From: a virus
Lineage: Duplodnaviria > Heunggongvirae > Uroviricota > Caudoviricetes
Length of the DNA stretch: 22,597 bases
Virus record (IMG/VR): IMGVR_UViG_2874933748_000003
Direction: 5' to 3' (one strand)
Position 1 is the first letter of the stretch; every line of letters begins with the position of its first letter. The translations under genes were made by a program, and so were the position numbers. Below are positions 1 to 17,284 of this stretch, one piece after another. The notes below the pieces were generated by a model. The model did not search any database. It was not told the origin of the DNA and was given only the letters and a program-made list of their open reading frames with translations.

Positions 1-200
1 CACAACATCCGAGGACAGCATCGTCCGCCAGCCTACAGAAGTCCGGAAAGCCATGGAAGGTCGTTGGGAGGAGGTACGAATTCTATCATGCAAAAAATAC
101 GTAAAATCGATAACGCCTAGAAATCATTCAATACTCGCACTATCGAAAGTTTACCAGCCAACCGCGGCACGTTCCTGCATACGACGTGCCGCAGCTTCTG

Positions 201-764
201 TTATTCCACGATAAAATTCCTAACCGAATTCAAATCCTTCAGACTATTCAGCTCTTCCTTCAGCTCCCGCTGACGGCGATAAATCTCGTCATTGCGCTCA
301 ACCTGTGCCTGAGCCATTGCTGCCGCCAGTTCTTCCAGTTCCGGCATCGACTGTTTCACCTGCTGATTATCGGCATCACCCCACGTCATCACGTCCCGTA
401 CAATGTCGGATTTCGCAGCCATTACCACCGGATAAAGGCGGCCCAGTGAGTTGGGGCCAGCATTCCAGATACGACCGTTCCATTCAAACGTGAACGGCTT
501 CGCCTCCTGTTCTGTGCGCCATGCTTCAATTCCCTGACGTCTGGCCTCTCTGGCCGCTTCCAGCATTTCTGGTGTCACAGTGAATGGGGCTATCTCACCC
601 CATTTGCCACTTTGCAGTTCCTGCCAGATTCGCTGACCCGTCGGTGCGACATCATCAGCGGTGGCTGTGTAGGGGACTGCCTGGTCCCTGTCGTCAAAAA
701 AAACGTCACAGTCTACTGCGCCACTTTCGGTATAACGGGGATTAATGATTTTTTTAATTTCCAC
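201..764 (-). CDS. Hypothetical prophage protein with C-terminal coiled-coil; possibly a tail fibre assembly/chaperone protein by position only
   Basis: Long ORF 201-824; likely GTG start at 764 preceded by GAGGA 7 nt upstream; lies immediately distal to tail fibre remnants; no family recognised with certainty. Confidence 0.45.
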   Translation of the reverse strand: MEIKKIINPRYTESGAVDCDVFFDDRDQAVPYTATADDVAPTGQRIWQELQSGKWGEIAPFTVTPEMLEAAREARRQGIEAWRTEQEAKPFTFEWNGRIWNAGPNSLGRLYPVVMAAKSDIVRDVMTWGDADNQQVKQSMPELEELAAAMAQAQVERNDEIYRRQRELKEELNSLKDLNSVRNFIVE

Positions 765-902
765 GGTGCATTCCTCACGATGTGCGAATAAAAAGCCCGG
801 GCATTGCGCCAGAGACATGAGCATCCGGCACCCCGGACAGGGCGCTATATGACCCCGGTAATGAATGCTCTGAACATCCCGTAATGAAAAATTGTGGGGA
901 TG

Positions 903-1444
903 CTATATACGTTCCGGTGGGAGTACTGGGCACTGAAATCCCCACCGGTCCCAGTCGTGAGCCTCTGTATGACTGCCCCTGACAAGTCTGATGACTTTAT
1001 CACCGTCAGCTTCTCCACGGTACGCAGCAATAATCAGCCCGCCAATGTCAGGGTCTCCCCATCTGTTGCAGACAGAGCTCGCCACGATTCTGTAAATAAT
1101 ATCTTCTGTGGTTATATTTATTTTCACCCAGCCAGTCAGTCTGGATATGGGCCAGTAGCAGTAGCGGGTGTGATAAATGGGGCCGTTAATGCCGTAAAAA
1201 GTAAGGGATTTGGCTCTGTACCTCGGTTCTGTTGTCTCAGGGCGTGCATCAGTCCACCGGATGCTGAGCACCCCTTCAAACCGTGTGTCGGGTATGATGA
1301 TGTCGTAGGGGCCAGCAACGGAATATTCACCTGGCAGCGCATTCCTTACCCAGGCCAGGAAATCACTCTTAGTGTCAAAACGGATAACATCTTCAGGCAG
1401 AAAAGCACACCCAAAGCCGAATGCGCCGGGTATCGCCAGACGGC
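903..1444 (-). pseudogene. 3-prime remnant of a gene cut by IS600 copy A; possibly the C-terminal part of the side tail fibre gene
   Basis: ORF has no native start and runs upstream into the IS600 terminus at 1445; the opposite strand is also open over the same span, so strand assignment is uncertain. Confidence 0.3.
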
Positions 1445-1487
1445 TGAGGTGTACTGGCAATAGCGGACACTACCATTTGTTCTTTTT

Positions 1488-2302
1488 TTAAGCAGCCATC
1501 TGATGATATTTTTCCCTGAAGGCTGCCGGGGAGATATTCCCCAGACGAGAGTGACGACGCTGACGATTGTAGAAAATCTCAATGTATTCCCGTATTACTG
1601 AGATGGCTTCATCCCGGTTATTAAAACGATAGTGGCTCAGGCTCTCATTTTTCAGCGTTCCCCAGAAGCTTTCCATCGGAGCGTTGTCGTAACAGTTACC
1701 TTTACGCGACATTGATGTTTTCAGACCAGACTGCTCCTGTATGACCCGGTAATCGTATGCGCAGTACTGTGAACCTCGATCAGAGTGGTGGATTAGCCCG
1801 GCAGGTGGGCGCTGGCTCCTGAGCGCCATAAACAGGGCTTTACCTGTCAGCTCTTTTGTCATGCGCTCTCCATGGCGTAGCCGACAATTTCGCACGTATA
1901 AACATCTTTGATGCCAGCGAGGTACAACCATCCCTCCTGTGTGGCAACATACGTCAGGTCCGCCACCCAGACCTGATTTGGTGCTGTAGGAGCGAACGTC
2001 TGGTTCAGCAGATTTGGCGCAACTGGCAGATTGTGGTTCGAGTTCGTAGTCGCTCTGAACTTGCGTTTCTGCTTACAGCGTAGCCTTAGCTCCTTACGAA
2101 GACGTGCCAGTCGGTCACGACCAACGATGATGCCATTCTCTGCCAGCTCCGTCTGGAGCCGCCGGGTTCCATATGTTTCGCGAGTGCGGATATGTGCCAC
2201 CTTAATCTCCAGTTTTAGCCGCTCATCACTTTGTTTTCTGTCTGAGGGTTCATGCTGTACCCAGTTGTAATAACCGCTCTGGATACACCAAATACCTGAC
2301 AC
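1488..2302 (-). pseudogene. IS600 orfB transposase, frameshifted (split into ORFs 1859-2302 and 1488-1931)
   Basis: Translation matches intact OrfB of copy B; a G-run is one base shorter (GCCATGGAGAG versus GCCATGGGAGAG), breaking the frame. Confidence 0.8.
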
Positions 2303-2339
2303 ATCGCTTCAATGGGAAATTGTTGTCGCCATTGTTCGA

Positions 2340-2609
2340 TTAACGCGTATTTTTCAGCGACTCCTGTGCAAAATACGCTGTTGCTTTTTTTAATATATCT
2401 CGCTCAAGGCGAGCTTCATTTAACGCCTTACGCAGTTGCAGAATTTCAGATTCCAGTTCAGCCACCGTGCGGGAACCAGGAGTACCGAGCCCTTTTCTGG
2501 CGGCGGTAACCCATTGTCCTAAAGTGCCTTCAGGAAGAGATAATCGGGAAGCGCCTTCACTGATCGAAAGTTGATTTTCAAGAACCGTTCTGACAGCTTC
2601 AGCTTTGAA
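2340..2609 (-). pseudogene. IS600 orfA, missing its first ~10 codons
   Basis: Matches OrfA from KEFKAEAVRTV onward; canonical 7-A and 5-A tracts present; N-terminus replaced by IS21-family sequence. Confidence 0.75.
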
Positions 2610-3292
2610 CTCTTTAGAGGTATCGATACCGGCTGACCACACAGCGCTTCGGGAACGCTGTAACGATTACCACCAACCTCGATATAGCTGTCCCAGGACA
2701 CATGGCGGATATCGAAGTAACTGGTATCGAAGTCTGTATCCGGTAACGGCTGCAGATGTTCCTGCTCCAGCGCGAAGCGCTGTTCCGGCGTTTCTTTGAA
2801 CTGGCGAAGCTCCCGTTTGTCAGCCACATCGGCTATCCATTGCTCCAGTTGTTGATTGACATGAGTGAAGCTGTCGAACCTGCGGTACCGGACGAAGAAG
2901 TTCTCCTTGAGGTATTTCACCATCCGCTCAACCTTACCTTTTGTTCTGGCCCTGCGTGGACGGCATGCCCGTGGCAGGAAGTTATAGTGGTCAGCCAGCA
3001 ACAGGAATCCGGAGTTGAACACGACTTTCCCGTTGTTATTCTTCAGCACCGCAGCCTTCTGGTTATCAACCAGCACCGTTTTCACACAATCACCGAAGTA
3101 GCGGAAGGCGCGAACCAGTGATTCGTAGGTATGCTCAGCATCCTGTTTTGGTGCGGCGAAGACATGGAAGCTGCGGGAGAACCCCAGCGTATTAACCGCA
3201 AAGTTAACTTTGCACCGTTGCCCGGCAACCTCCACCTCAACTTCGCCCCAGTCATGCTGGAGCTGGTATCCAGGCTGAGTTTCGAAGCGAAC
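2610..3292 (-). pseudogene. istA: IS21-family transposase IstA, central/C-terminal segment
   Basis: Translation RFETQPGYQLQHDWGEVEVEVAGQRCKVNF...GNRYSVPEALCGQPVSI; ORF 2519-3235 in the track runs on into IS600 sequence. Confidence 0.7.
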
Positions 3293-3356
3293 TGAGGTAG
3301 CCTGAGTTTAACGGACACTCCTTCCTGAAATAGAATGGCATCAGAAGGAGCTAATA

Positions 3357-3656
3357 ATGAGCAGAAAAACCCAACGTTACTCTAAAGAGTTCAAAGCCGA
3401 AGCTGTCAGAACGGTTCCTGAAAATCAACTTTCGATCAGTGAAGGCGCTTCCCGATTATCTCTTCCTGAAGGCACTTTAGGACAATGGGTTACCGCCGCC
3501 AGAAAAGGGCTCGGTACTCCTGGTTCCCGCACGGTGGCTGAACTGGAATCTGAAATTCTGCAACTGCGTAAGGCGTTAAATGAAGCTCGCCTTGAGCGAG
3601 ATATATTAAAAAGCAACAGCGTATTTTGCACAGGAGTCGCTGAAAATACGCGTTAA
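3357..3656 (+). CDS. IS600 OrfA (variant C-terminus ...KSNSVFCTGVAENTR)
   Basis: 99-aa ORF with HTH-like N-terminus MSRKTQRYSKEFKAEAVRTV; first A-tract has 5 A and second has 4 A, versus 7 and 5 in copies A and C. Confidence 0.8.
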   Translation: MSRKTQRYSKEFKAEAVRTVPENQLSISEGASRLSLPEGTLGQWVTAARKGLGTPGSRTVAELESEILQLRKALNEARLERDILKSNSVFCTGVAENTR

Positions 3657-3693
3657 TCGAACAATGGCGACAACAATTTCCCATTGAAGCGAT

Positions 3694-4509
3694 GTGTCAG
3701 GTATTTGGTGTATCCGGAGCGGTTATTACAACTGGGTACAGCATGAACCCTCAGACAGAAAACAAAGTGATGAGCGGCTAAAACTGGAGATTAAGGTGGC
3801 ACATATCCGCACTCGCGAAACATATGGAACCCGGCGGCTCCAGACGGAGCTGGCAGAGAATGGCATCATCGTTGGTCGTGACCGACTGGCACGTCTTCGT
3901 AAGGAGCTAAGGCTACGCTGTAAGCAGAAACGCAAGTTCAGAGCGACTACGAACTCGAACCACAATCTGCCAGTTGCGCCAAATCTGCTGAACCAGACGT
4001 TCGCTCCTACAGCACCAAATCAGGTCTGGGTGGCGGACCTGACGTATGTTGCCACACAGGAGGGATGGTTGTACCTCGCTGGCATCAAAGATGTTTATAC
4101 GTGCGAAATTGTCGGCTACGCCATGGGAGAGCGCATGACAAAAGAGCTGACAGGTAAAGCCCTGTTTATGGCGCTCAGGAGCCAGCGCCCACCTGCCGGG
4201 CTAATCCACCACTCTGATCGAGGTTCACAGTACTGCGCATACGATTACCGGGTCATACAGGAGCAGTCTGGTCTGAAAACATCAATGTCGCGTAAAGGTA
4301 ACTGTTACGACAACGCTCCGATGGAAAGCTTCTGGGGAACGCTGAAAAATGAGAGCCTGAGCCACTATCGTTTTAATAACCGGGATGAAGCCATCTCAGT
4401 AATACGGGAATACATTGAGATTTTCTACAATCGTCAGCGTCGTCACTCTCGTCTGGGGAATATCTCCCCGGCAGCCTTCAGGGAAAAATATCATCAGATG
4501 GCTGCTTAA
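3694..4509 (+). CDS. IS600 OrfB transposase (DDE/integrase core), the only unbroken orfB in the window
   Basis: 271-aa ORF; both halves match the split orfB frames of copies A, D and E. Confidence 0.85.
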   Translation: MSGIWCIRSGYYNWVQHEPSDRKQSDERLKLEIKVAHIRTRETYGTRRLQTELAENGIIVGRDRLARLRKELRLRCKQKRKFRATTNSNHNLPVAPNLLNQTFAPTAPNQVWVADLTYVATQEGWLYLAGIKDVYTCEIVGYAMGERMTKELTGKALFMALRSQRPPAGLIHHSDRGSQYCAYDYRVIQEQSGLKTSMSRKGNCYDNAPMESFWGTLKNESLSHYRFNNRDEAISVIREYIEIFYNRQRRHSRLGNISPAAFREKYHQMAA

Positions 4510-4552
4510 AAAAAGAACAAATGGTAGTGTCCGCTATTGCCAGTACACCTCA

Positions 4553-4879
4553 AACTGTTCTTTTTGACGGACGCATTTTACGTTTGGGCTGGATGTAGTA
4601 ACGCAGCATGGAACGTCCGCCCGTATAACCCATTGCCTTAATCTCCGCGAAGATAACCTCGCTATTCCAGACATTCTCTGCCAGGCGCATGTCGATGTAA
4701 TCCATAAACGGTTTCAGCTTAACCATTTTGTGGCGGGTCTTTCTGGCTGGCGGTTCAGGGTATTTGAGGTAGCGTCTGACCGTCCGTTCAGAGCAACCAA
4801 TCTGAGTCGCAATATCGACGATGTACGCGCCCTGCTGGCGCATTTGCTTTATCATGTAAAAGTCCTCTCTGCTCAGCAT
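4553..4879 (-). pseudogene. istA: IS21-family transposase IstA, N-terminal HTH segment
   Basis: Translation MLSREDFYMIKQMRQQGAYIVDIATQIGCSERTVRRYL...KRKMRPSKRTV, then IS600 B. Confidence 0.75.
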
Positions 4880-4980
4880 GTTGATGTCCTTTCTGGTGTG
4901 AGAACCTTAAGGAAACAACATGTTGGGTGGAGCGGACAATCCAAATGGCGAATTACCGTCTTATATCACTGGCGCTGACA

Positions 4981-5292
4981 CTTCATCACCTCCGGACGTA
5001 AATCACCATCCTTTGGTGCATTCAGAAACGCGTTCAGTGTCCCCGGTGCATCAGTCGGTGCCACATCAATATCCCCGACACGGGTTGGCTGCCAGCCGTT
5101 ACAGTGAAGCGCAACCTCGTAATACCCCGGCTCAGCCTCAATCACATAAGCACCGTTATTGTCCGTCACGCAAGTGGCAACAACGTGTGCCACAACGGTC
5201 GGACTGGTTCTTCTGGCCCGCAGTTCAATCGCACAATTTACGACAGGTTTACCCGCCCCATCTTTCAGTACACCTGAAATCTTTACTGCCAT
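4981..5292 (-). pseudogene. stf: Side tail fibre gene, N-terminal ~104 codons only, truncated by the IS21-family insertion
   Basis: MAVKISGVLKDGAGKPV...GTLNAFLNAPKDGDLRPEV resembles the N-terminus of lambda Stf; frame continues into the IS terminus and stops. Confidence 0.75.
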
Positions 5293-5302
5293 ATTCACCC
5301 CA

Positions 5303-5328
5303 CAAAAAGCCCGCCTGAACCAGCGGGC
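5303..5328 (-). terminator. Intrinsic terminator-like hairpin downstream of lom
   Basis: Minus strand reads GCCCGC-TGGTTCAG-GCGGGC followed by TTTTTGTGGGG. Confidence 0.5.
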
Positions 5329-5355
5329 AGTCATAACACTGTGTTACCTGGCTAA

Positions 5356-5955
5356 TCAGAACTTATAACCGACACCCACGATGAAACCGTCAGTGCGCCA
5401 GTCACCACTGCCGGAACCTTCATAAGCAAGGTCAATGGCCACGGATTCGGTCGGGTTAAACTGCACGCCAGCCCCCCACGCCAGAGACGTGTTGCTGTGG
5501 CGACCGCCATCACTTCCGGTCAGCACATCGTGCGTTTTCCCCTTGTTGTCAGTTACGCGGAGATAATCCCCGGAGAAGGTCGACACACGGCTGTAAGCCA
5601 CGCCCGCCATCGCATACGCGCTGAACCATTCATTCACGCGCACAGACGGCCCCGCCATCACGCTGAACCAGCGGTTACGCACGGAATCCTCATGCCAGCG
5701 GGTATCGCTGTAATGCGTTTTTTGCTCATCTTCAGCGTTGGCATAACTGAATGACGTAATCAGCCCCAGCGTGTCCGTAAACTCATAACGGTATTTCACG
5801 TTAATGCCCTTCAGGTCATCGCTGCCTGGCATATCAGTATGGGTCTGAAGATACCCGGCGCTCAGCGTGGACTGATGTTCAGACGCCCATGCAGGCGCAC
5901 CGGATACGGCCAGACAGATGGCTGCGGACAAAATGGCTGCACAAACTTTACGCAT
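5356..5955 (-). CDS. lom: Lom-like outer membrane protein (Ail/Lom family), a lambda moron
   Basis: 199-aa ORF with signal peptide and C-terminal ...GVGYKF beta-barrel ending; positioned between J and stf as in lambda. Confidence 0.9.
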   Translation of the reverse strand: MRKVCAAILSAAICLAVSGAPAWASEHQSTLSAGYLQTHTDMPGSDDLKGINVKYRYEFTDTLGLITSFSYANAEDEQKTHYSDTRWHEDSVRNRWFSVMAGPSVRVNEWFSAYAMAGVAYSRVSTFSGDYLRVTDNKGKTHDVLTGSDGGRHSNTSLAWGAGVQFNPTESVAIDLAYEGSGSGDWRTDGFIVGVGYKF

Positions 5956-5977
5956 AATTACCTCTCGCTTTTCTGCA

Positions 5978-6004
5978 ATAAAAAAGGCACCATTTCTGGT
6001 GCCC
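5978..6004 (-). terminator. Intrinsic terminator between J and lom
   Basis: Minus strand reads GGCACC-AGAAAT-GGTGCC followed by TTTTTTATTG. Confidence 0.6.
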
Positions 6005-6022
6005 GTATCTGGGTTATAAAAT

Positions 6023-9000
6023 TCAGCTAATCGTGATGCCTGCAGTGGCTTTCTTCATCACCACAACCAGCAAATCGCTGATACTTGCTGTGGGATACCA
6101 GCCATTTACCAGCCATGCCGATACAGAAAACTCCAGCGTCATGTGACCGTGACCGGCAGGCATATCAATAACACCCGTATATATCAGCGTATTATCCAGG
6201 GTCGTTCGGTTATAAATTTCAGCACCGTTTTTCTTCACTATCAGGCGGCATGACGAATAAATATTGTTATTCTTCCGCTCATGTTTAGCACCGCGAAACG
6301 CCACCGCGGGAATAACAATTTGCCGATCAAACGGCTGATCGTCATAAACCCTGACGGTAATGGTCCCTGATGGCCACCTCTCCGGTGCCCGGGAGTCCCG
6401 TGGGAAAGGTTTGCCCACTGTTTTAACGAGATCGCCTTCAATCTGGTTCGCGGACAATTTTCCCAGAACCCGACAGTTCTTATTAATCGTGACGTTGTTG
6501 AGCGTCCCGGAGTTCGCGTTCACGTTACCGCTGATATCGGCATTTTTCGCCGTCAGCCGTCCGCCAGGTGTCAGGGAAAATGCCGGAGGATTACCGCCGC
6601 TGGTAATGGTCGGAGCCGTCAGGCATTTCAGGAACACGTCGTTCATGAATATCTGATCGCCCTGACCAACAAACATCGGCTTTGTGTTGCCATTCGCAGG
6701 ATTAATCATCGCAATCCTGTCTGCCGCCAGCAGCACCTGACTCTGCATTCCTGCTGGCGTATTCTCAATACCGGCACCGATACCCGCAATATAAAGGCGT
6801 CCGTCCTTCATCTGTTGCAGCTTCACAGCCCACATGCTGTTCAGGTTATTATTTGTATCAACCTGAACTTTCTGTATCTGCTGGATTGCAGCACTCTGAT
6901 TTTCCAGTTTTTTATTGACGGTTTGCGTGATTTCATTGCTGACATTCGTAATGGACGTCCTGATTTCAGTCAGGTCCGGCGCAAGCTGACCGTTATCAAT
7001 CTGCGTCCACAACTCCTTGCCGAGATGCGTTTTATTGATCAACCCTTTATAAAAATTCAGATAACCTTCTGCATCATCGCTCGCCCGACCGATGGCCTCC
7101 ACAAATGCCGATTTGCCAACGGTGTTCACACTGCGAACGTAAAAATAATAATCATGGCCCGGCCTGATATTGATACTGGCGGCTATCCAGTACAGCGCCG
7201 TGCCAAGATAGCGGGCGCTGGTTTCAACCTGCCTGATATCCGCAATCCGCTTTTCCGAAAACCAGAACTCAAACTGCACCGTCGGGTCATATACAGCCAG
7301 TTTCGGGACCGCCGTTATCTGAAAATACCCCGGTATCAGTTCAATAGTGACAGGCGCTGCCGGTGCCGCAATCCGGAACGATACCGACGCCGGATCGCCC
7401 TGCTGCCCCCGGGCATTTACCGCCCGGACTGTCAGACTGTAATTCCCCAGCGCCAGCTGCCTGAAGCGGTATGTGGTTTCCGTCGTCCTGGCTGTGCTGA
7501 CCAGCCGCTCACTGCCGTCGTCCGCTGCCACGGTCAGGCGAAGCAGGAAGCTCACACCCTTCACCACCTTCGGCGTGTCCCATCGCGCCAGCACCTGATA
7601 TTCCCCGCTGTCTGCGGTGACTTCGGCGGTCAGATGCTGCACCGCTGGCGGCGTGACACCATTCACCGTGCCGCGCCGGTCACCGTCAAAGTGTGCCCCG
7701 TTATCCACGATGGCCTCTTTTTCCGGCACATGCTGCACGGCGGTGATGGCATACGTGCCGTCGTCGTTCTCACGGATACTCACGCAGCGGAACAGACGCT
7801 GGCGCAGCGTCGGCAGCTTCAGCCCCCACACGCTGTATTCTGCAACGCCGTCAGGAACCCGGCTCACTTTCACCTTCACGCCGTCGGTGACGGACTGGAC
7901 CTCCACGCTGACCGGATTGCCACTTCCGTCAACCAGGCTTATCAGCGTGGTACCGGAGGACGGCAGCGTGATTTCACGGTCGAGCGTCAGCGTCCGGGTC
8001 TGGCTGTTCACCGCCAGTACGCGACCACCGGTGCTGATACCGGCATAATCATCATCGCAGATTTCAATGACATCACCCGGTACATGGCGAAGCCCTTCTG
8101 CGCCCACGCTGAAGTCCACGGTCTGCGTTTCCAGCAGTTCCGTTTTAATCAGCCACAGCCCGGCTCGGTGTGCCTGCCCCCGGCTGGTACAGCCAAAGGC
8201 ATCCATCTTCGTGACATTACGACCGTAACGGGCAATGGCCTGCGTATCCTCCACAAGCTCTGTCGCCGTCTCCCAGCCGTTATCTGGGTCAATCCAGTTC
8301 ACCTCAACGGCATTATGGCGGTCCTTCAGGGCGCTGAAGCTGTAGCGGAACGGCGCGCCATCGTCCGGCATCACCACATTACTGCGGTTATAGGTCCACA
8401 CCTTATCCGACGGTCGGTCCTGCACGAACGTCAGCATCTGTCCGTTCCATACCGGCATACAGCGCATCGCCGAGCAGAAATCACTGAGAACATCCCACGC
8501 CTTACGCTGTGTGGTCAGGTAAGAGTTACAGGTGATGCGCGGCTCCGTGCCGCCAAATCCGTCCGTCACTGACTGGTCGCAGTACTGGCCGATGACATAC
8601 AGCGCCCATTTGTCCACATCTGCCGCACCAAGACGTTTCCCCATGCCGTAGCGCGGATGAGTGAGCATGTCCCACAGACACCAGGCCATGTTGTTGCTGT
8701 ATGCTGGCTTAAGCGTTCCGTCCCAGATACCGCTGTATTGCCGCGTCTGCGGGTTATAGTTCGACGGCACCTGCAGAATGCGCCCGCGAAGATGATAATT
8801 GCGACTCACCTGCTGGTTACCGAACTGCTCTGAATCCACCTGCACGCCGACCAGCGCCGTGTTCGGGTAGCACTGTTTCACATCGATGATTTCGGTGTAC
8901 GACGACCAGAGCGTTTTGTTCTGCAGCTGGTCTGTGGTGCTGTCCGGTGTCATCCTGCGCATCCGGATATTAAACGGGCGCGGCGGCAGGTTACCCACCA

Positions 9001-9502
9001 CCACCGAGGCCAGATACTGCGAAGTGGTTTTGCCCTTAATGGTGATGTCTTTTTCCGTCACCCAGCCACCGTTACGCTGTATCTGAACCAGCAGGCGGAC
9101 TTCCGACGGATTCCGGTCACCCTTTGAGGTGGTTTCCACCAGTGCCTGCACACCGAAGGTCAGGCGCAGACGGTCGATGTTTGCCGACGTGATGGTCCGG
9201 GTGATCGGCGTGTCATATTTCACTTCCGTACCCAGCACCGTCTCGGAGCCGGAGGATTCAAAACCCTCCGGCGGTGTCTGCTCCTGCTCACCTGCACGGA
9301 ACACCACCGTAACACCGGAAAAGTTTGTCTTCCCCTCGCTGTCCAGGACCGGCGTACCGTTCAGCAGCACGCTTTTTAATCCATCCACCGGACCGTCAAC
9401 CGGCCCTTCGCTGATGGCATCAATCACACTCAGCAACTGCGTGGATTTCAGGTTGTCCTTCGCTTCGCGCGGGGTATGCCCCTTACTGCTGCCTTTACCC
9501 AT
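6023..9502 (-). CDS. J: Tail tip / host specificity protein J
   Basis: 1159-aa ORF colinear with lambda J from [20 protein letters not shown] onward. Confidence 0.95.
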
Positions 9503-11557: not shown

Positions 11558-11887
11558 CTATGCCACGACCTGTTCAAAATCTGCCGTTATGGTTACCCAC
11601 AACGCCCCCACGCTTGCCGACCATTTACGACAAACCACCCTGATCGGCTTCCAGTCATAAGGTGGCGTCCACTGAAATGCGCGGACGCCACCGTGCCGTT
11701 CCAGAAAGGCTTTTAAAAATGGGTGTTCACCTTTACGAACACGTATCTTCACGCTGTAAGTCGACAACTGGTTATTCAGTCCCGCCGCACGACGCTGTTC
11801 ATAACCATCGCCCAGCTTCACTGTCACCACTTTCGGCTCTGATACCACATTCATATCCGGGCGCACTTTCCAGTGAAACGTCTCCAT
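11558..11887 (-). CDS. M: Minor tail protein M
   Basis: 109-aa ORF METFHWKVRPDMNV...WTPPYDWKPIRV...EFEQVVA resembles lambda M. Confidence 0.9.
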   Translation of the reverse strand: METFHWKVRPDMNVVSEPKVVTVKLGDGYEQRRAAGLNNQLSTYSVKIRVRKGEHPFLKAFLERHGGVRAFQWTPPYDWKPIRVVCRKWSASVGALWVTITADFEQVVA

Positions 11888-12226
11888 TACCGGTATGCTC
11901 CACTTAACCGGCCACCATCACGGGCCTGCTGTTGCATAAAGTCCGCGGCCGCTTTTTTCCCGAGGTCATAAACCACCTTCAGGGCAGCCGGACCTATCTG
12001 CCCGTTCGTGCCATCGTTATTGATCTCAATGTTGTACTGCGGGGCAAACATCACCATGCCTGAACCACCAGTATCCGCCACACCCCCCAGCTTACCATCA
12101 GCACCGCGACGCAGTGGCAGAATGGCTTCAGGTCCCGCTTCCCCCATCACACCCGCGCCTTTTGCAAAAGCAAAAAACGTCGGACGGTTAACCACCGTGC
12201 CACTGTAGCGACTCAAATCAGCAGAC
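11887..12226 (-). pseudogene. H: Tail tape measure protein H, C-terminal ~113 codons only, truncated by IS600 copy C
   Basis: ...FAPQYNIEINNDGTNGQIGPAALKVVYDLGKK...RDGGRLSGAYR matches the C-terminus of lambda H; upstream part of the track ORF (MSVKLRLPQ) is IS600 terminal sequence. Confidence 0.85.
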
Positions 12227-12705
12227 TGAGGTAGCCTGAGTTTAACGGACACTCCTTCCTGAAATAGAATGGCATCAGAAGGAGCTAATAATGAGCAGAA
12301 AAACCCAACGTTACTCTAAAGAGTTCAAAGCCGAAGCTGTCAGAACGGTTCCTGAAAATCAACTTTCGATCAGTGAAGGCGCTTCCCGATTATCTCTTCC
12401 TGAAGGCACTTTAGGACAATGGGTTACCGCCGCCAGAAAAGGGCTCGGTACTCCTGGTTCCCGCACGGTGGCTGAACTGGAATCTGAAATTCTGCAACTG
12501 CGTAAGGCGTTAAATGAAGCTCGCCTTGAGCGAGATATATTAAAAAAAGCAACAGCGTATTTTGCACAGGAGTCGCTGAAAAATACGCGTTAATCGAACA
12601 ATGGCGACAACAATTTCCCATTGAAGCGATGTGTCAGGTATTTGGTGTATCCAGGAGCGGTTATTACAACTGGGTACAGCATGAACCCTCAGACAGAAAA
12701 CAAAG
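12227..12705 (+). mobile_element. IS600 copy C, left ~480 bp only (IRL, orfA, start of orfB)
   Basis: TGAGGTAGCCTGAG at 12227; sequence runs to CAAAGTGA inside orfB, then the left end of copy D begins. Confidence 0.85.
12291..12593 (+). CDS. IS600 OrfA, canonical 100-aa form with the A7 slippery tract
   Basis: Ends ...RDILKKATAYFAQESLKNTR; 7-A and 5-A tracts; reading the minus-one frame from the A7 tract gives the OrfB N-terminus. Confidence 0.85.
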   Translation: MSRKTQRYSKEFKAEAVRTVPENQLSISEGASRLSLPEGTLGQWVTAARKGLGTPGSRTVAELESEILQLRKALNEARLERDILKKATAYFAQESLKNTR

Positions 12706-12769
12706 TGAGGTAGCCTGAGTTTAACGGACACTCCTTCCTGAAATAGAATGGCATCAGAAGGAGCTAATA

Positions 12770-13057
12770 ATGAGCAGAAAAACCCAACGTTACTCTAAAG
12801 AGTTCAAAGCCGAAGCTGTCAGAACGGTTCTTGAAAATCAACTTTCGATCAGTGAAGGCGCTTCCCGATTATCTCTTCCTGAAGGCACTTTAGGACAATG
12901 GGTTACCGCCGCCAGAAAAGGGCTCGGTACTCCTGGTTCCCGCACGGTGGCTGAACTGGAATCTGAAATTCTGCAACTGCGTAAGGCGTTAAATGAAGCT
13001 CGCCTTGAGCGAGATATATTAAAAAAGCAACAGCGTATTTTGCACAGGAGTCGCTGA
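12770..13057 (+). pseudogene. IS600 orfA with altered C-terminus (6-A tract)
   Basis: 95-aa ORF ending ...RDILKKQQRILHRSR; A-tract is one base shorter than in copy C. Confidence 0.7.
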
Positions 13058-13108
13058 AAAATACGCGTTAATCGAACAATGGCGACAACAATTTCCCATT
13101 GAAGCGAT

Positions 13109-13923
13109 GTGTCAGGTATTTGGTGTATCCGGGGCGGTTATTACAACTGGGTACAGCATGAACCCTCAGACAGAAAACAAAGTGATGAGCGGCTAAAACT
13201 GGAGATTAAGGTGGCACATATCCGCACTCGCGAAACATATGGAACCCGGCGGCTCCAGACGGAGCTGGCAGAGAATGGCATCATCGTTGGTCGTGACCGA
13301 CTGGCACGTCTTCGTAAGGAGCTAAGGCTACGCTGTAAGCAGAAACGCAAGTTCAGAGCGACTACGAACTCGAACCACAATCTGCCAGTTGCGCCAAATC
13401 TGCTGAACCAGACGTTCGCTCCTACAGCACCAAATCAGGTCTGGGTGGCGGACCTGACGTATGTTGCCACACAGGAGGGATGGTTGTACCTCGCTGGCAT
13501 CAAAGATGTTTATACGTGCGAAATTGTCGGCTACGCCATGGGAGAGCGCATGACAAAGAGCTGACAGGTAAAGCCCTGTTTATGGCGCTCAGGAGCCAGC
13601 GCCCACCTGCCGGGCTAATCCACCACTCTGATCGAGGTTCACAGTACTGCGCATACGATTACCGGGTCATACAGGAGCAGTCTGGTCTGAAAACATCAAT
13701 GTCGCGTAAAGGTAACTGTTACGACAACGCTCCGATGGAAAGCTTCTGGGGAACGCTGAAAAATGAGAGCCTGAGCCACTATCGTTTTAATAACCGGGAT
13801 GAAGCCATCTCAGTAATACGGGAATACATTGAGATTTTCTACAATCGTCAGCGTCGTCACTCTCGTCTGGGGAATATCTCCCCGGCAGCCTTCAGGGAAA
13901 AATATCATCAGATGGCTGCTTAA
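13109..13923 (+). pseudogene. IS600 orfB, frameshifted (ORFs 13109-13564 and 13480-13923)
   Basis: GACAAAGAGCTGAC has 3 A where the intact copy B has 4. Confidence 0.75.
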
Positions 13924-14016
13924 AAAAAGAACAAATGGTAGTGTCCGCTATTGCCAGTACACCTCACACTCTATCCAACAAACCACCCACAGTTAATCGG
14001 AATAAAAGCAGAGTGC

Positions 14017-14648: not shown

Positions 14649-15203
14649 TCAAAAAGCAATAACTTTTTTCTCTATACCAAAAGCCATAACCATTGGTTTG
14701 TACAAAATAAATTCTGCCACCTTTAGCCAATGCTCAATGCGTCTTTCACAGGTTCTTAAACTCCATTTCGGGTGTGCATCATTCAGCAGTTCAGCCATTT
14801 TGCGTTTGGTCATCCCCCGCCCCTCATACCGTTGCCGAAGGACGCTAATCAATCCTGGATGCTCTGCCAGCACCTCACTTATGACCCGATCAATACATAA
14901 CGCCTCTGCATCAGTACAATGCGCCAGCCAGCTCTTTTGCTTACCGTTAATCATATCCCGCAAAAAAGCCTCAAGTTCAGACTTGTTCAGACCTGCTTTT
15001 TTCATCCTCCGGAGCGCCTCGTTAATTGCCGTTTTTGTCAGCTTTTTAGAGGTCAACATCAGGTTAAACATATTCCCCGTCTTACCGCCACCAATATACG
15101 ACCAGCGCCCCCACATACGTAGTTTTCCCTGAATCCAGACACTTTCCAGCGTGGTGAGACGAAGGTGTTCTCCGCTTTTTCCTGTATTCGTTGGGTAAAT
15201 CAT
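14649..15203 (-). CDS. Late-gene antiterminator Q-like protein (QuuD/phage-82 type)
   Basis: ATG at 15203 preceded by AAGGAGGG; W-G-x-W motif near the N-terminus (LRMWGRWSY); position just upstream of a terminator and tRNAs; start overlaps the stop of the upstream gene (ATGA). Confidence 0.6.
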   Translation of the reverse strand: MIYPTNTGKSGEHLRLTTLESVWIQGKLRMWGRWSYIGGGKTGNMFNLMLTSKKLTKTAINEALRRMKKAGLNKSELEAFLRDMINGKQKSWLAHCTDAEALCIDRVISEVLAEHPGLISVLRQRYEGRGMTKRKMAELLNDAHPKWSLRTCERRIEHWLKVAEFILYKPMVMAFGIEKKVIAF

Positions 15204-15490
15204 AAATATCCCTCCTTTCTCCAGATTTCTTGTGTGCGAAAAACACCTTCTGCATGCATCAGGCGTAATTCTTCTTTGGTGTAATCGCTGGTTTTTACCC
15301 GCCCGTCGATTAAATCGTGGCACGAGCTACAGGCAATCGCTGCCTGCATATCGTGTGGCTTTATCGCTGTTCCGCACGTTCCCGCCAGTCGGTAATGCGC
15401 CAGCACAGACGTTTCCGGATCGTGATTGCAGTAGCCAGGAATTCTGACGGTGCACATCTGCCCCCGCGCCGCTTTACGTAAATCCACCAT
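15200..15490 (-). CDS. YbcO-like small Cys/His-rich protein (DUF1364-type) of the nin region
   Basis: 96-aa ORF with Cys/His cluster (CTVRIPGYCNHD ... CSSCHDL); translationally coupled to flanking genes (TAATG upstream, ATGA downstream). Confidence 0.5.
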   Translation of the reverse strand: MVDLRKAARGQMCTVRIPGYCNHDPETSVLAHYRLAGTCGTAIKPHDMQAAIACSSCHDLIDGRVKTSDYTKEELRLMHAEGVFRTQEIWRKEGYL

Positions 15491-16373: not shown

Positions 16374-16479
16374 GATGCCTCCAGGTTTATAAGTACAAAC
16401 GGTTATATCAACATAGAGACAAAAGGTGATGCTGCCAACTTACTGATTTAGTGTATGATCGTGTTTTTGAGGTGCTCCA

Positions 16480-16755
16480 GTGGCTTCTGTTTCTATCAGC
16501 TGTCCCTCCTGTTCAGCTACTGACGGGGTGGTGCGTAACGGCAAAAGCACTGCCGGACATCAGCGCTATCTCTGCTCTCACTGCCGTAAAACATGGCAAC
16601 TGCAGTTCACTTACACCGCTTCCCAACCCGGTACGCACCAGAAAATCATTGATATGGCCATGAATGGCGTTGGATGCCGGGCAACTGCACGCATTATGGG
16701 CGTTGGCCTCAACACGATTTTACGTCACTTAAAAAACTCAGGCCGCAGTCGGTAA
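16480..16755 (+). CDS. insA: IS1 InsA
   Basis: 91-aa [46 protein letters not shown]. Confidence 0.9.
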
Positions 16756-17177
16756 CCTCGCGCATACAGCCGGGCAGTGACGTCATCGTCTGCGCGGAAA
16801 TGGACGAACAGTGGGGCTATGTCGGGGCTAAATCGCGCCAGCGCTGGCTGTTTTACGCGTATGACAGTCTCCGGAAGACGGTTGTTGCGCACGTATTCGG
16901 TGAACGCACTATGGCGACGCTGGGGCGTCTTATGAGCCTGCTGTCACCCTTTGACGTGGTGATATGGATGACGGATGGCTGGCCGCTGTATGAATCCCGC
17001 CTGAAGGGAAAGCTGCACGTAATCAGCAAGCGATATACGCAGCGAATTGAGCGGCATAACCTGAATCTGAGGCAGCACCTGGCACGGCTGGGACGGAAGT
17101 CGCTGTCGTTCTCAAAATCGGTGGAGCTGCATGACAAAGTCATCGGGCATTATCTGAACATAAAACACTATCAATAA
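16674..17177 (+). CDS. insB: IS1 InsB frame (expressed as the InsAB-prime fusion by frameshifting)
   Basis: 167-aa ORF overlapping insA in the minus-one frame. Confidence 0.9.
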
Positions 17178-17284
17178 GTTGGAGTCATTACCAAAAAAAC
17201 CGCCGAAACGGGTTAAGTGCGGGTGCGTTGAGGATGCCTGACACATCAAAGGTGGCGGGAGATTACTCTCCCGCCTGGTCACTC

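Follow-up and report, generated by a model that had tools for sequence, protein, structure and literature searches.

Close to the left end of the DNA analysed here, a stretch of 22,597 nucleotides from a Caudoviricetes record (IMGVR_UViG_2874933748_000003), hereafter the window, a segment next to a terminus of the insertion sequence IS600 is open on both strands, and the question arises which strand is coding and from which gene the segment is derived. The two overlapping ORFs, a plus-strand ORF of 189 aa with a GTG start (894..1463) and a minus-strand ORF of 185 aa with a TTG start (903..1460), lie where the original prediction had placed a pair of open frames. The minus frame had been described as devoid of a native start and running into the IS600 terminus, and the plus frame as ending with codons supplied by the IS. 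Both descriptions agree with the sequence: the TTG and the first five codons of the minus ORF are IS-derived, its stf-derived portion being 903-1444, and the last six codons of the plus ORF, together with its TAG stop (1461-1463), are located inside the IS600 terminus. The segment had also been proposed, with the strand left undecided, as a candidate 3' part of the tail fibre gene stf, which is cut on the far side of the IS cluster. According to the present analysis, positions 775-1444 on the minus strand very probably correspond to the non-functional 3' part of stf in a decayed lambdoid prophage adjoining the sitABCD iron/manganese transporter genes.

The coding strand and its antisense image

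With a codon score and an openness probability trained on the window's own phage genes, six-frame scoring over 179 codons put the codon log-likelihood at -9.8 bits in the plus and -17.3 bits in the minus frame. Codon usage was rejected as the means of deciding the strand, the two open frames being inseparable by these values, as the original prediction had already suspected from reading the codons. Homology decides where codon scoring cannot. The minus frame matches the PHROGs family phrog_2636, annotated as 'tail fiber protein' (E 2.3e-61, residues 6-164 versus profile positions 339-503 of 568), and shares in tblastn 32-41% identity with annotated tail fibre genes of Av-05, 18-1-2/19-1-2, Goslar and Rac-SA53, the fibres so matched belonging to lytic phages. 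Searches of the plus frame against Pfam and PHROGs and by tblastn gave no match at a threshold as permissive as E<=1. Pfam contains no family for either frame, the sense frame being recognised by PHROGs only. The translated search recommended by the original prediction thus identified the minus frame as a tail fibre and left the plus frame without a match; neither a lack of homology for both frames nor a likeness of the plus frame to an unrelated gene was encountered. On the strength of these matches, the coding strand is the minus strand only.

In the codon-aligned antisense phase, stop codons arise solely from the sense codons TTA, CTA and TCA. In both ORFs the codons are delimited at positions that are multiples of 3, so that the plus codons are the reverse complements of the sense codons, and the sense frame, with its 10 Leu and 8 Ser codons, contains zero TTA, CTA or TCA. 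The plus ORF is open because of this shared phase and of the lack of these three codons in the sense frame. With the codon usage of the local phage genes, the chance of zero TTA, CTA or TCA amounts to ~0.39; the double openness is not above chance and needs no special explanation. Homologues from E. coli (loci L001-L003) and from S. dysenteriae (L014, 91% identical) contain at least three stops per antisense frame, whereas their sense frame is stop-free. The plus ORF is neither kept in diverged homologues nor provided with protein homologues, as would be expected of an antisense gene. The ORF 894-1463 is an antisense image of the sense frame and no gene, and is in every respect comparable to the 'shadow' ORFs found opposite genuine genes, its codon-aligned antisense phase included.

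The stf gene and its 3' end

The remaining parts of stf both belong to the minus strand. The 5' fragment (4981..5292) consists of codons 1-104 and matches positions 1-104 of the 134 positions of PF08400 (E 1.6e-36); the cut 'at codon ~104' of the original prediction is exact, window 5292->4981 comprising 104 codons. The fragment aligns to positions 7730-8041 of the E. coli VL40 locus (L003), with a junction after stf nt 312. The 3' remnant (775..1444) corresponds to nt 746-1416 of the intact gene of 1416 nt, as indicated by blastn, translation, alignment and the match to phrog_2636, and is 96.8-97.3% identical in blastn to the intact E. coli loci L001-L003; in the window it measures 670 nt, owing to the loss of one base. 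At the exact junction, the IS600 end ...CACCTCA is followed by GCCGTCTGG, which begins at stf nt 746.

The two fragments are found united in other chromosomes. In E. coli VL40 the genes are arranged in the order ompN - uspF - sitABCD - DUF4376 - stf (471 aa) - lom - J, and FDAARGOS_943 (L002) displays an identical stf - lom - J order at a different site. A megablast search with positions 150-1444 identified ten E. coli chromosomes holding the entire stretch at 94-97% identity, annotated there as 'prophage tail fiber N-terminal domain-containing protein' and 'DUF4376 domain-containing protein'. Window positions 1-1444 align to L003 5852-7296 and window positions 4981-6040 to L003 7730-8791; exactly 433 nt are missing between the two stf pieces of the window and are replaced by the IS cluster. 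Because L003 is collinear with the window on both flanks and the gap of exactly 433 nt falls inside stf, both fragments are to be read as the two ends of one gene, and a single gene of 471 aa spans both of them in L002 as well as in L003. The proposal that the remnant represents the distal part of the cut fibre gene is supported by this arrangement, both pieces being covered by the L003 gene.

The ancestral stf comprised ~471 codons and had a DUF4376 gene downstream; its product began with an N-terminal domain of the lambda-Stf type, continued with a shaft rich in Ala and Gln and with a domain of ~160 aa, and ended in a conserved C-terminal tail. The intact L003 Stf matches PF08400 at E 2e-48 and, in a PDB sequence search, its N-terminal domain matches the solved tail fibre chain 9e7m_Ta (E 3.5e-22). 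In this respect, the window gene resembles the lambda-type stf genes of E. coli and Shigella lambdoid prophages (PF08400): it is located after J and lom and possesses the PF08400 N-terminal domain, its intact orthologue in L003 likewise matches a solved tail fibre N-terminal domain (9e7m), and its organization is likewise modular, with an Ala-rich shaft preceding an exchangeable distal module and an accessory gene downstream. It differs from them in being split by IS elements, deprived of 433 nt and frameshifted. The intact orthologues of VL40 (WP_490181964.1) and FDAARGOS_943 (WP_197940023.1) show 94-97% nucleotide identity on both retained parts and share neighbourhood and gene order with the window, but they are uninterrupted and have a run of five C residues (C5), whereas the window copy is split and has a run of four (C4). 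With the IS split, the loss of 433 nt and the 1-nt frameshift, no uninterrupted translatable stf is left in the window; the gene is a pseudogene of the PF08400 Stf family and no working member of it.

The extent assigned to the minus frame by the original prediction was correct for the part 903-1444, which agrees with the ORF and with the IS boundary, but not for the end at 903, the remnant continuing to the native stop codon TGA at 775..777 on the minus strand. The frame ends early, at the premature TAG 903..905 (minus strand) produced by the frameshift, because one C is missing at 976..979, where an alignment with E. coli CFSAN029787 reveals a C4 run in place of the C5 run of the intact homologues. 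In all the E. coli homologues the gene extends 128 nt beyond the window ORF, up to a TGA equivalent to 775-777, and frame 1 of the minus-strand translation ends with ...GLFIRTS* as in the intact genes. The 22 out-of-frame residues preceding the stop at 903-905, i.e., those of SHTEAHDWDRWGFQCPVLPPERI after its first, shared S, differ from the native continuation QSYRGSRLGPVG...GLFIRTS, which is conserved across the family; the native end replaced by the frameshift reads QSYRGSRLGPVGISVP...PGSYSALSG...GLFIRTS. The C5 frame yields the motifs GSRL, PGxYxALSG and GLFxRIx, nearly invariant in 53 aligned relatives, whereas the C4 frame does not, and the C5 frame is considered ancestral because of this near-invariance of the native-end motifs.

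The C5 run occurs in L001-L003, L006, L007 and L009-L013, and the C4 run in the window, in L008 and in a S. flexneri draft (L005). Eight near-identical chromosomes of ~4.8 Mb, 99.8-99.9% identical to the window over the collinear stretch (8.8 kb in five of these sisters, 4.6 kb in L008 and L010, and 2.6 kb in L012), all possess the stf/IS600 junction; C5 is found in seven of them and C4 in one, L008. These chromosomes include CP023645, which is accompanied by a plasmid (CP023646) assigned in its record to Shigella sonnei. The junction gave zero exact matches in a genome-contig collection, probably because only one genome per species is included there. The S. flexneri draft, made of short contigs, encodes the protein P0001 with the C4 run and with the central part of stf still present; since P0001 is frameshifted yet retains central stf, the frameshift and the IS-linked deletion are independent of each other. 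The C4 run may reflect true polymorphism, a homopolymer sequencing error in the assembly being the less likely cause; single-base indels also account for the remaining differences from the sisters, all of them situated in the IS600 copies. Substitutions relative to the S. dysenteriae copy are distributed by codon position as 13/14/7, devoid of a third-position excess, the E. coli copies having been compared likewise. Such a pattern, which lends no support to purifying selection acting on the sense frame, is what a fibre tip that evolves fast or decays would be expected to show.

The IS cluster and the surrounding prophage

Along the minus strand, the order is stf codons 1-104, the left end and istA of an IS21-family element, IS600 copy B, more of istA, IS600 copy A, and stf from nt 746 on. 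Copy A (1445..2619, minus strand) has an intact orfB-side end starting at 1445 (TGAGGTGTACTGG... / TGAGGTGTACTGGCAATAGCGG...) and is truncated inside orfA, with its first 87 nt missing. Its TGAGG... terminus and its identity of 99.2-99.5% over 1175 nt to three full IS600 copies of the window, as measured by self-blast, identify it as IS600, a member of the IS3 family, and its orfB is broken up by single-base deletions. The IS21-family element is represented by an internal istA segment (2620..3292, minus strand), bluntly joined to the truncated copy A at 2619/2620, and by the 5' part of istA with the left terminal repeat (4553..4980, minus strand), which reads TGTCAGCGCCAG... on the minus strand from 4980. 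Both segments are separated by the full-length copy B (3293..4552, plus strand), inserted in istA and bordered by an AAC duplication (3290-3292 and 4553-4555). Removal of copy B and of one AAC reconstructs a contiguous sequence of 1098 nt (2620-3292 + 4556-4980), 99.9% identical to the istA of IS21-like elements from Shigella sonnei plasmids.

The 2619/2620 junction is blunt, shows no microhomology and lies inside both IS600 A and istA, at neither terminus; because of this internal position, it was not created by a transposase working on an IS end. Copy A has lost its far end, hence its single flank, whereas copy B has its 3-bp AAC duplication. The simplest history that we infer from this anatomy would involve the insertion of the IS21-family element after stf codon 104 and, separately, that of IS600 copy A before nt 746. 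One deletion would then have taken away 433 nt of stf together with the first 87 nt of IS600 A and, from the IS21-family element, its distal half of ~1 kb, which contained istB, the right end and the last part of istA. The second IS600, copy B, is seated within the remaining istA, and a further loss of 1 nt in the C5 run would have truncated the frame at 903 in the window. Compared with other IS-mediated pseudogenes of Shigella, in which IS600 of the IS3 family, IS21-family elements and IS1 participate, the locus exhibits the same ends TGAGG...CCTCA with a 3-bp duplication, and the same nested insertions, internal deletion and recombination between copies; nothing in it is unusual.

Copies A and B lack single bases present in most sisters (at 1869, 2278, 3607 and 3715), losses that split orfB in copy A and modify the final part of orfA in copy B. 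The set of missing bases varies from one chromosome to another, L009 being identical to the window at 2278, and these losses correspond either to real decay or, the DNA being repeated, to homopolymer/assembly errors. The sisters also differ in what lies beyond the IS600 copies: L008 and L010 have IS600 B joined to the copy at 12706, and in L012 the stf remnant adjoins a full-length IS600 whose left flank, near int/xis, is unrelated. Such differences indicate that recombination between IS600 copies is ongoing.

The neighbouring genes are those of a lambdoid tail module, with stf downstream of J and lom. The minus-strand genes upstream of stf comprise, according to Pfam, the tail genes M, L, K (JAB + NlpC/P60), I and J, together with the outer-membrane gene lom; lom (5356-5955, minus strand) matches the Ail_Lom family at E 4.1e-129, and the tail tip gene J (6023-9502, minus strand) contains the GpJ domain set. 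Downstream of stf, an intact DUF4376 gene (201..764, minus strand) matches PF14301 (E 4.9e-14) and phrog_1141, 'tail fiber protein' (E 1.2e-86), and may encode a putative fibre accessory protein or chaperone, or a distal fibre subunit. It takes the place occupied by a Tfa-type gene in lambda, no match to PF02413 being found in Pfam. The longest DUF4376 ORF begins at 824 and overlaps the native end of stf, but the true start is likely the GTG at 764, which is preceded by GAGGAA 6 nt upstream; the match to phrog_1141 begins at residue 19 and the gene is annotated as 188 aa in E. coli 401651. The identical protein occurs in 189 blocks of a public collection, and a PDB sequence search revealed no solved relative of it.

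Farther to the right, a partial IS600 (12221-12708) directly precedes a full copy (12701-13966). This pair stands between the remnant of the tail gene located upstream of M (ORF 11887-12252) and the late-regulation genes that come next, i.e., a DUF1133/Q-like gene (14649-15323), YbcO and DUF1367. The prophage seems to have lost its head genes and most of its tail genes. Two IS1-sized repeats of 770 bp (16425-17194 and 19941-20710), 99.7% identical, enclose DUF551 and HNH-endonuclease ORFs, and a fourth IS600 copy (20843-22106) is followed by a phage integrase fragment (22091-22597, PF00589).

Alternative readings, the distal module and the fate of the remnant

Three other readings of the locus deserve consideration. 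A genuine gene at 894-1463, either overlapping stf in antisense or newly made by the IS600 insertion, can practically be dismissed: its length of 189 codons and a codon score at least as good as the sense frame's (-9.8 vs -17.3 bits) are outweighed by the zero matches in Pfam, PHROGs and tblastn at E<=1, by a codon alignment with the sense frame which renders its openness expected at P ~0.39, by the three or more stops in L001-L003 and L014, by a stop codon that sits in IS600, and by the lack of any promoter-like site. It is very improbable, too, that the remnant comes from the fibre gene of another prophage and was brought beside the N-terminal piece of stf by an IS-mediated rearrangement. 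Such an origin could be imagined since the IS600 copies have recombined in the sister genomes L008, L010 and L012, and since a myovirus-like prophage of E. coli CFSAN029787 carries the C-terminal module, together with DUF4376, with another PF08400 N-terminus ahead of it, an arrangement which shows that the distal module is swapped between fibres. However, VL40 and FDAARGOS_943 join in one gene the N-terminus of the window (94.5% nucleotide identity, lom included) and its C-terminus, the VL40 gene has the matching sit/uspF/ompN flank, and the pieces of the window omit exactly the intervening 433 nt, so that L003 already largely refutes a foreign origin.

The remaining reading concerns the expression of the remnant, which could be translated from the TTG supplied by IS600 as a truncated protein and retained with DUF4376 for some host function. 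In the sisters with the C5 run, the ORF starting at this TTG measures 228 aa and is called as a gene in L007, L009 and L013, the downstream DUF4376 gene is intact with its identical protein in the 189 blocks mentioned above, and the junction is kept in all eight chromosomes examined. Against these observations stand the lack of a promoter-like site, no sigma-70-like match being found within 100-1700, and of a Shine-Dalgarno sequence before the TTG at 1460; a break of the frame that recurs in the window, L008 and the S. flexneri draft L005 and speaks against selection; and the two stops that separate the remnant from the orfB of IS600. A readthrough fusion with this orfB was rejected for the same reason: the frame is shared, but two stops intervene. 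Moreover, a trimeric fibre tip devoid of its shaft and N-terminal anchor is unlikely to fold or to attach, which would apply to the tip left here without its trimerising shaft. Expression of this kind is very improbable, and there is equally little reason to believe that Shigella sonnei keeps the chimeric 228-aa ORF and DUF4376 for its own benefit, e.g., for a surface or exclusion function. A decayed stf is the preferred reading, and its remnant most likely makes no protein, as would be expected from the absence of a native start and of any recognisable promoter or ribosome-binding site upstream of the IS-supplied TTG. The protein of the 185-aa ORF is not on record in the public collection.

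The domain carried by the remnant belongs to a small family, distinct from the distal module of the lambda/T4 gp37-like type, with 74 clusters at 50% identity. A HMMER search of 1.84 billion cluster representatives with the 179-aa remnant retrieved these 74 relatives, 57 of them at E<=1e-10. Most relatives are fibres of 250-1000 aa in which 50-70 residues separate the end of the domain (query residues 1-157) from the C-terminus, and in three long relatives the domain is located near the N-terminus. The N-termini of the relatives vary, being of the lambda-Stf type in most of those inspected and of another type in P0029. Two or three tandem copies of the domain occur in the long fibres P0018, P0019 and P0027, each preceded by a linker 'LGLKSAATMxxQSDIxDRTxGRLAxPGAFGFG'. 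In E. coli CFSAN029787 (L001, 8052-17296), the module and DUF4376 occupy the sit-proximal end of the myovirus-like prophage, which contains baseplate J/gp47, spike and hub genes and a second pair of fibre and assembly genes, an instance of module exchange between siphovirus-type and myovirus-type tails at one chromosomal site.

No Pfam model covers this family and no solved structure is available for it, a PDB sequence search with the intact protein returning solved relatives for the N-terminal domain only. AlphaFold modelling with the alignment of 53 sequences reached a pLDDT of 87 and a pTM of 0.67, a model built from a shallow alignment having been discarded (pLDDT 34.7). Foldseek found no match in the PDB at E<=0.001, the best one being a phi812 baseplate chain (E 0.018), and the model displays a moderate fold resemblance to phage receptor-binding proteins. 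Together with the near-C-terminal position of the domain, this resemblance suggests that the module is probably distal and receptor-binding.

No paper describing this stf remnant was found in the literature searched. As a by-product of the analysis, a small family of distal modules devoid of a solved structure has come to light, for which a confident AlphaFold model would be obtainable. With respect to annotation, the coding strand, the true end of the pseudogene and the relationship between the two stf fragments, which belong together, are settled: the 185-aa ORF (228 aa in the sisters) is to be marked as a stf pseudogene fragment, the 189-aa plus-strand ORF should not be called, and the start of the DUF4376 gene is probably better placed at the GTG. 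The locus as a whole is an example of ordinary IS-driven prophage decay in a Shigella-type genome, a kind of decay that is already known.
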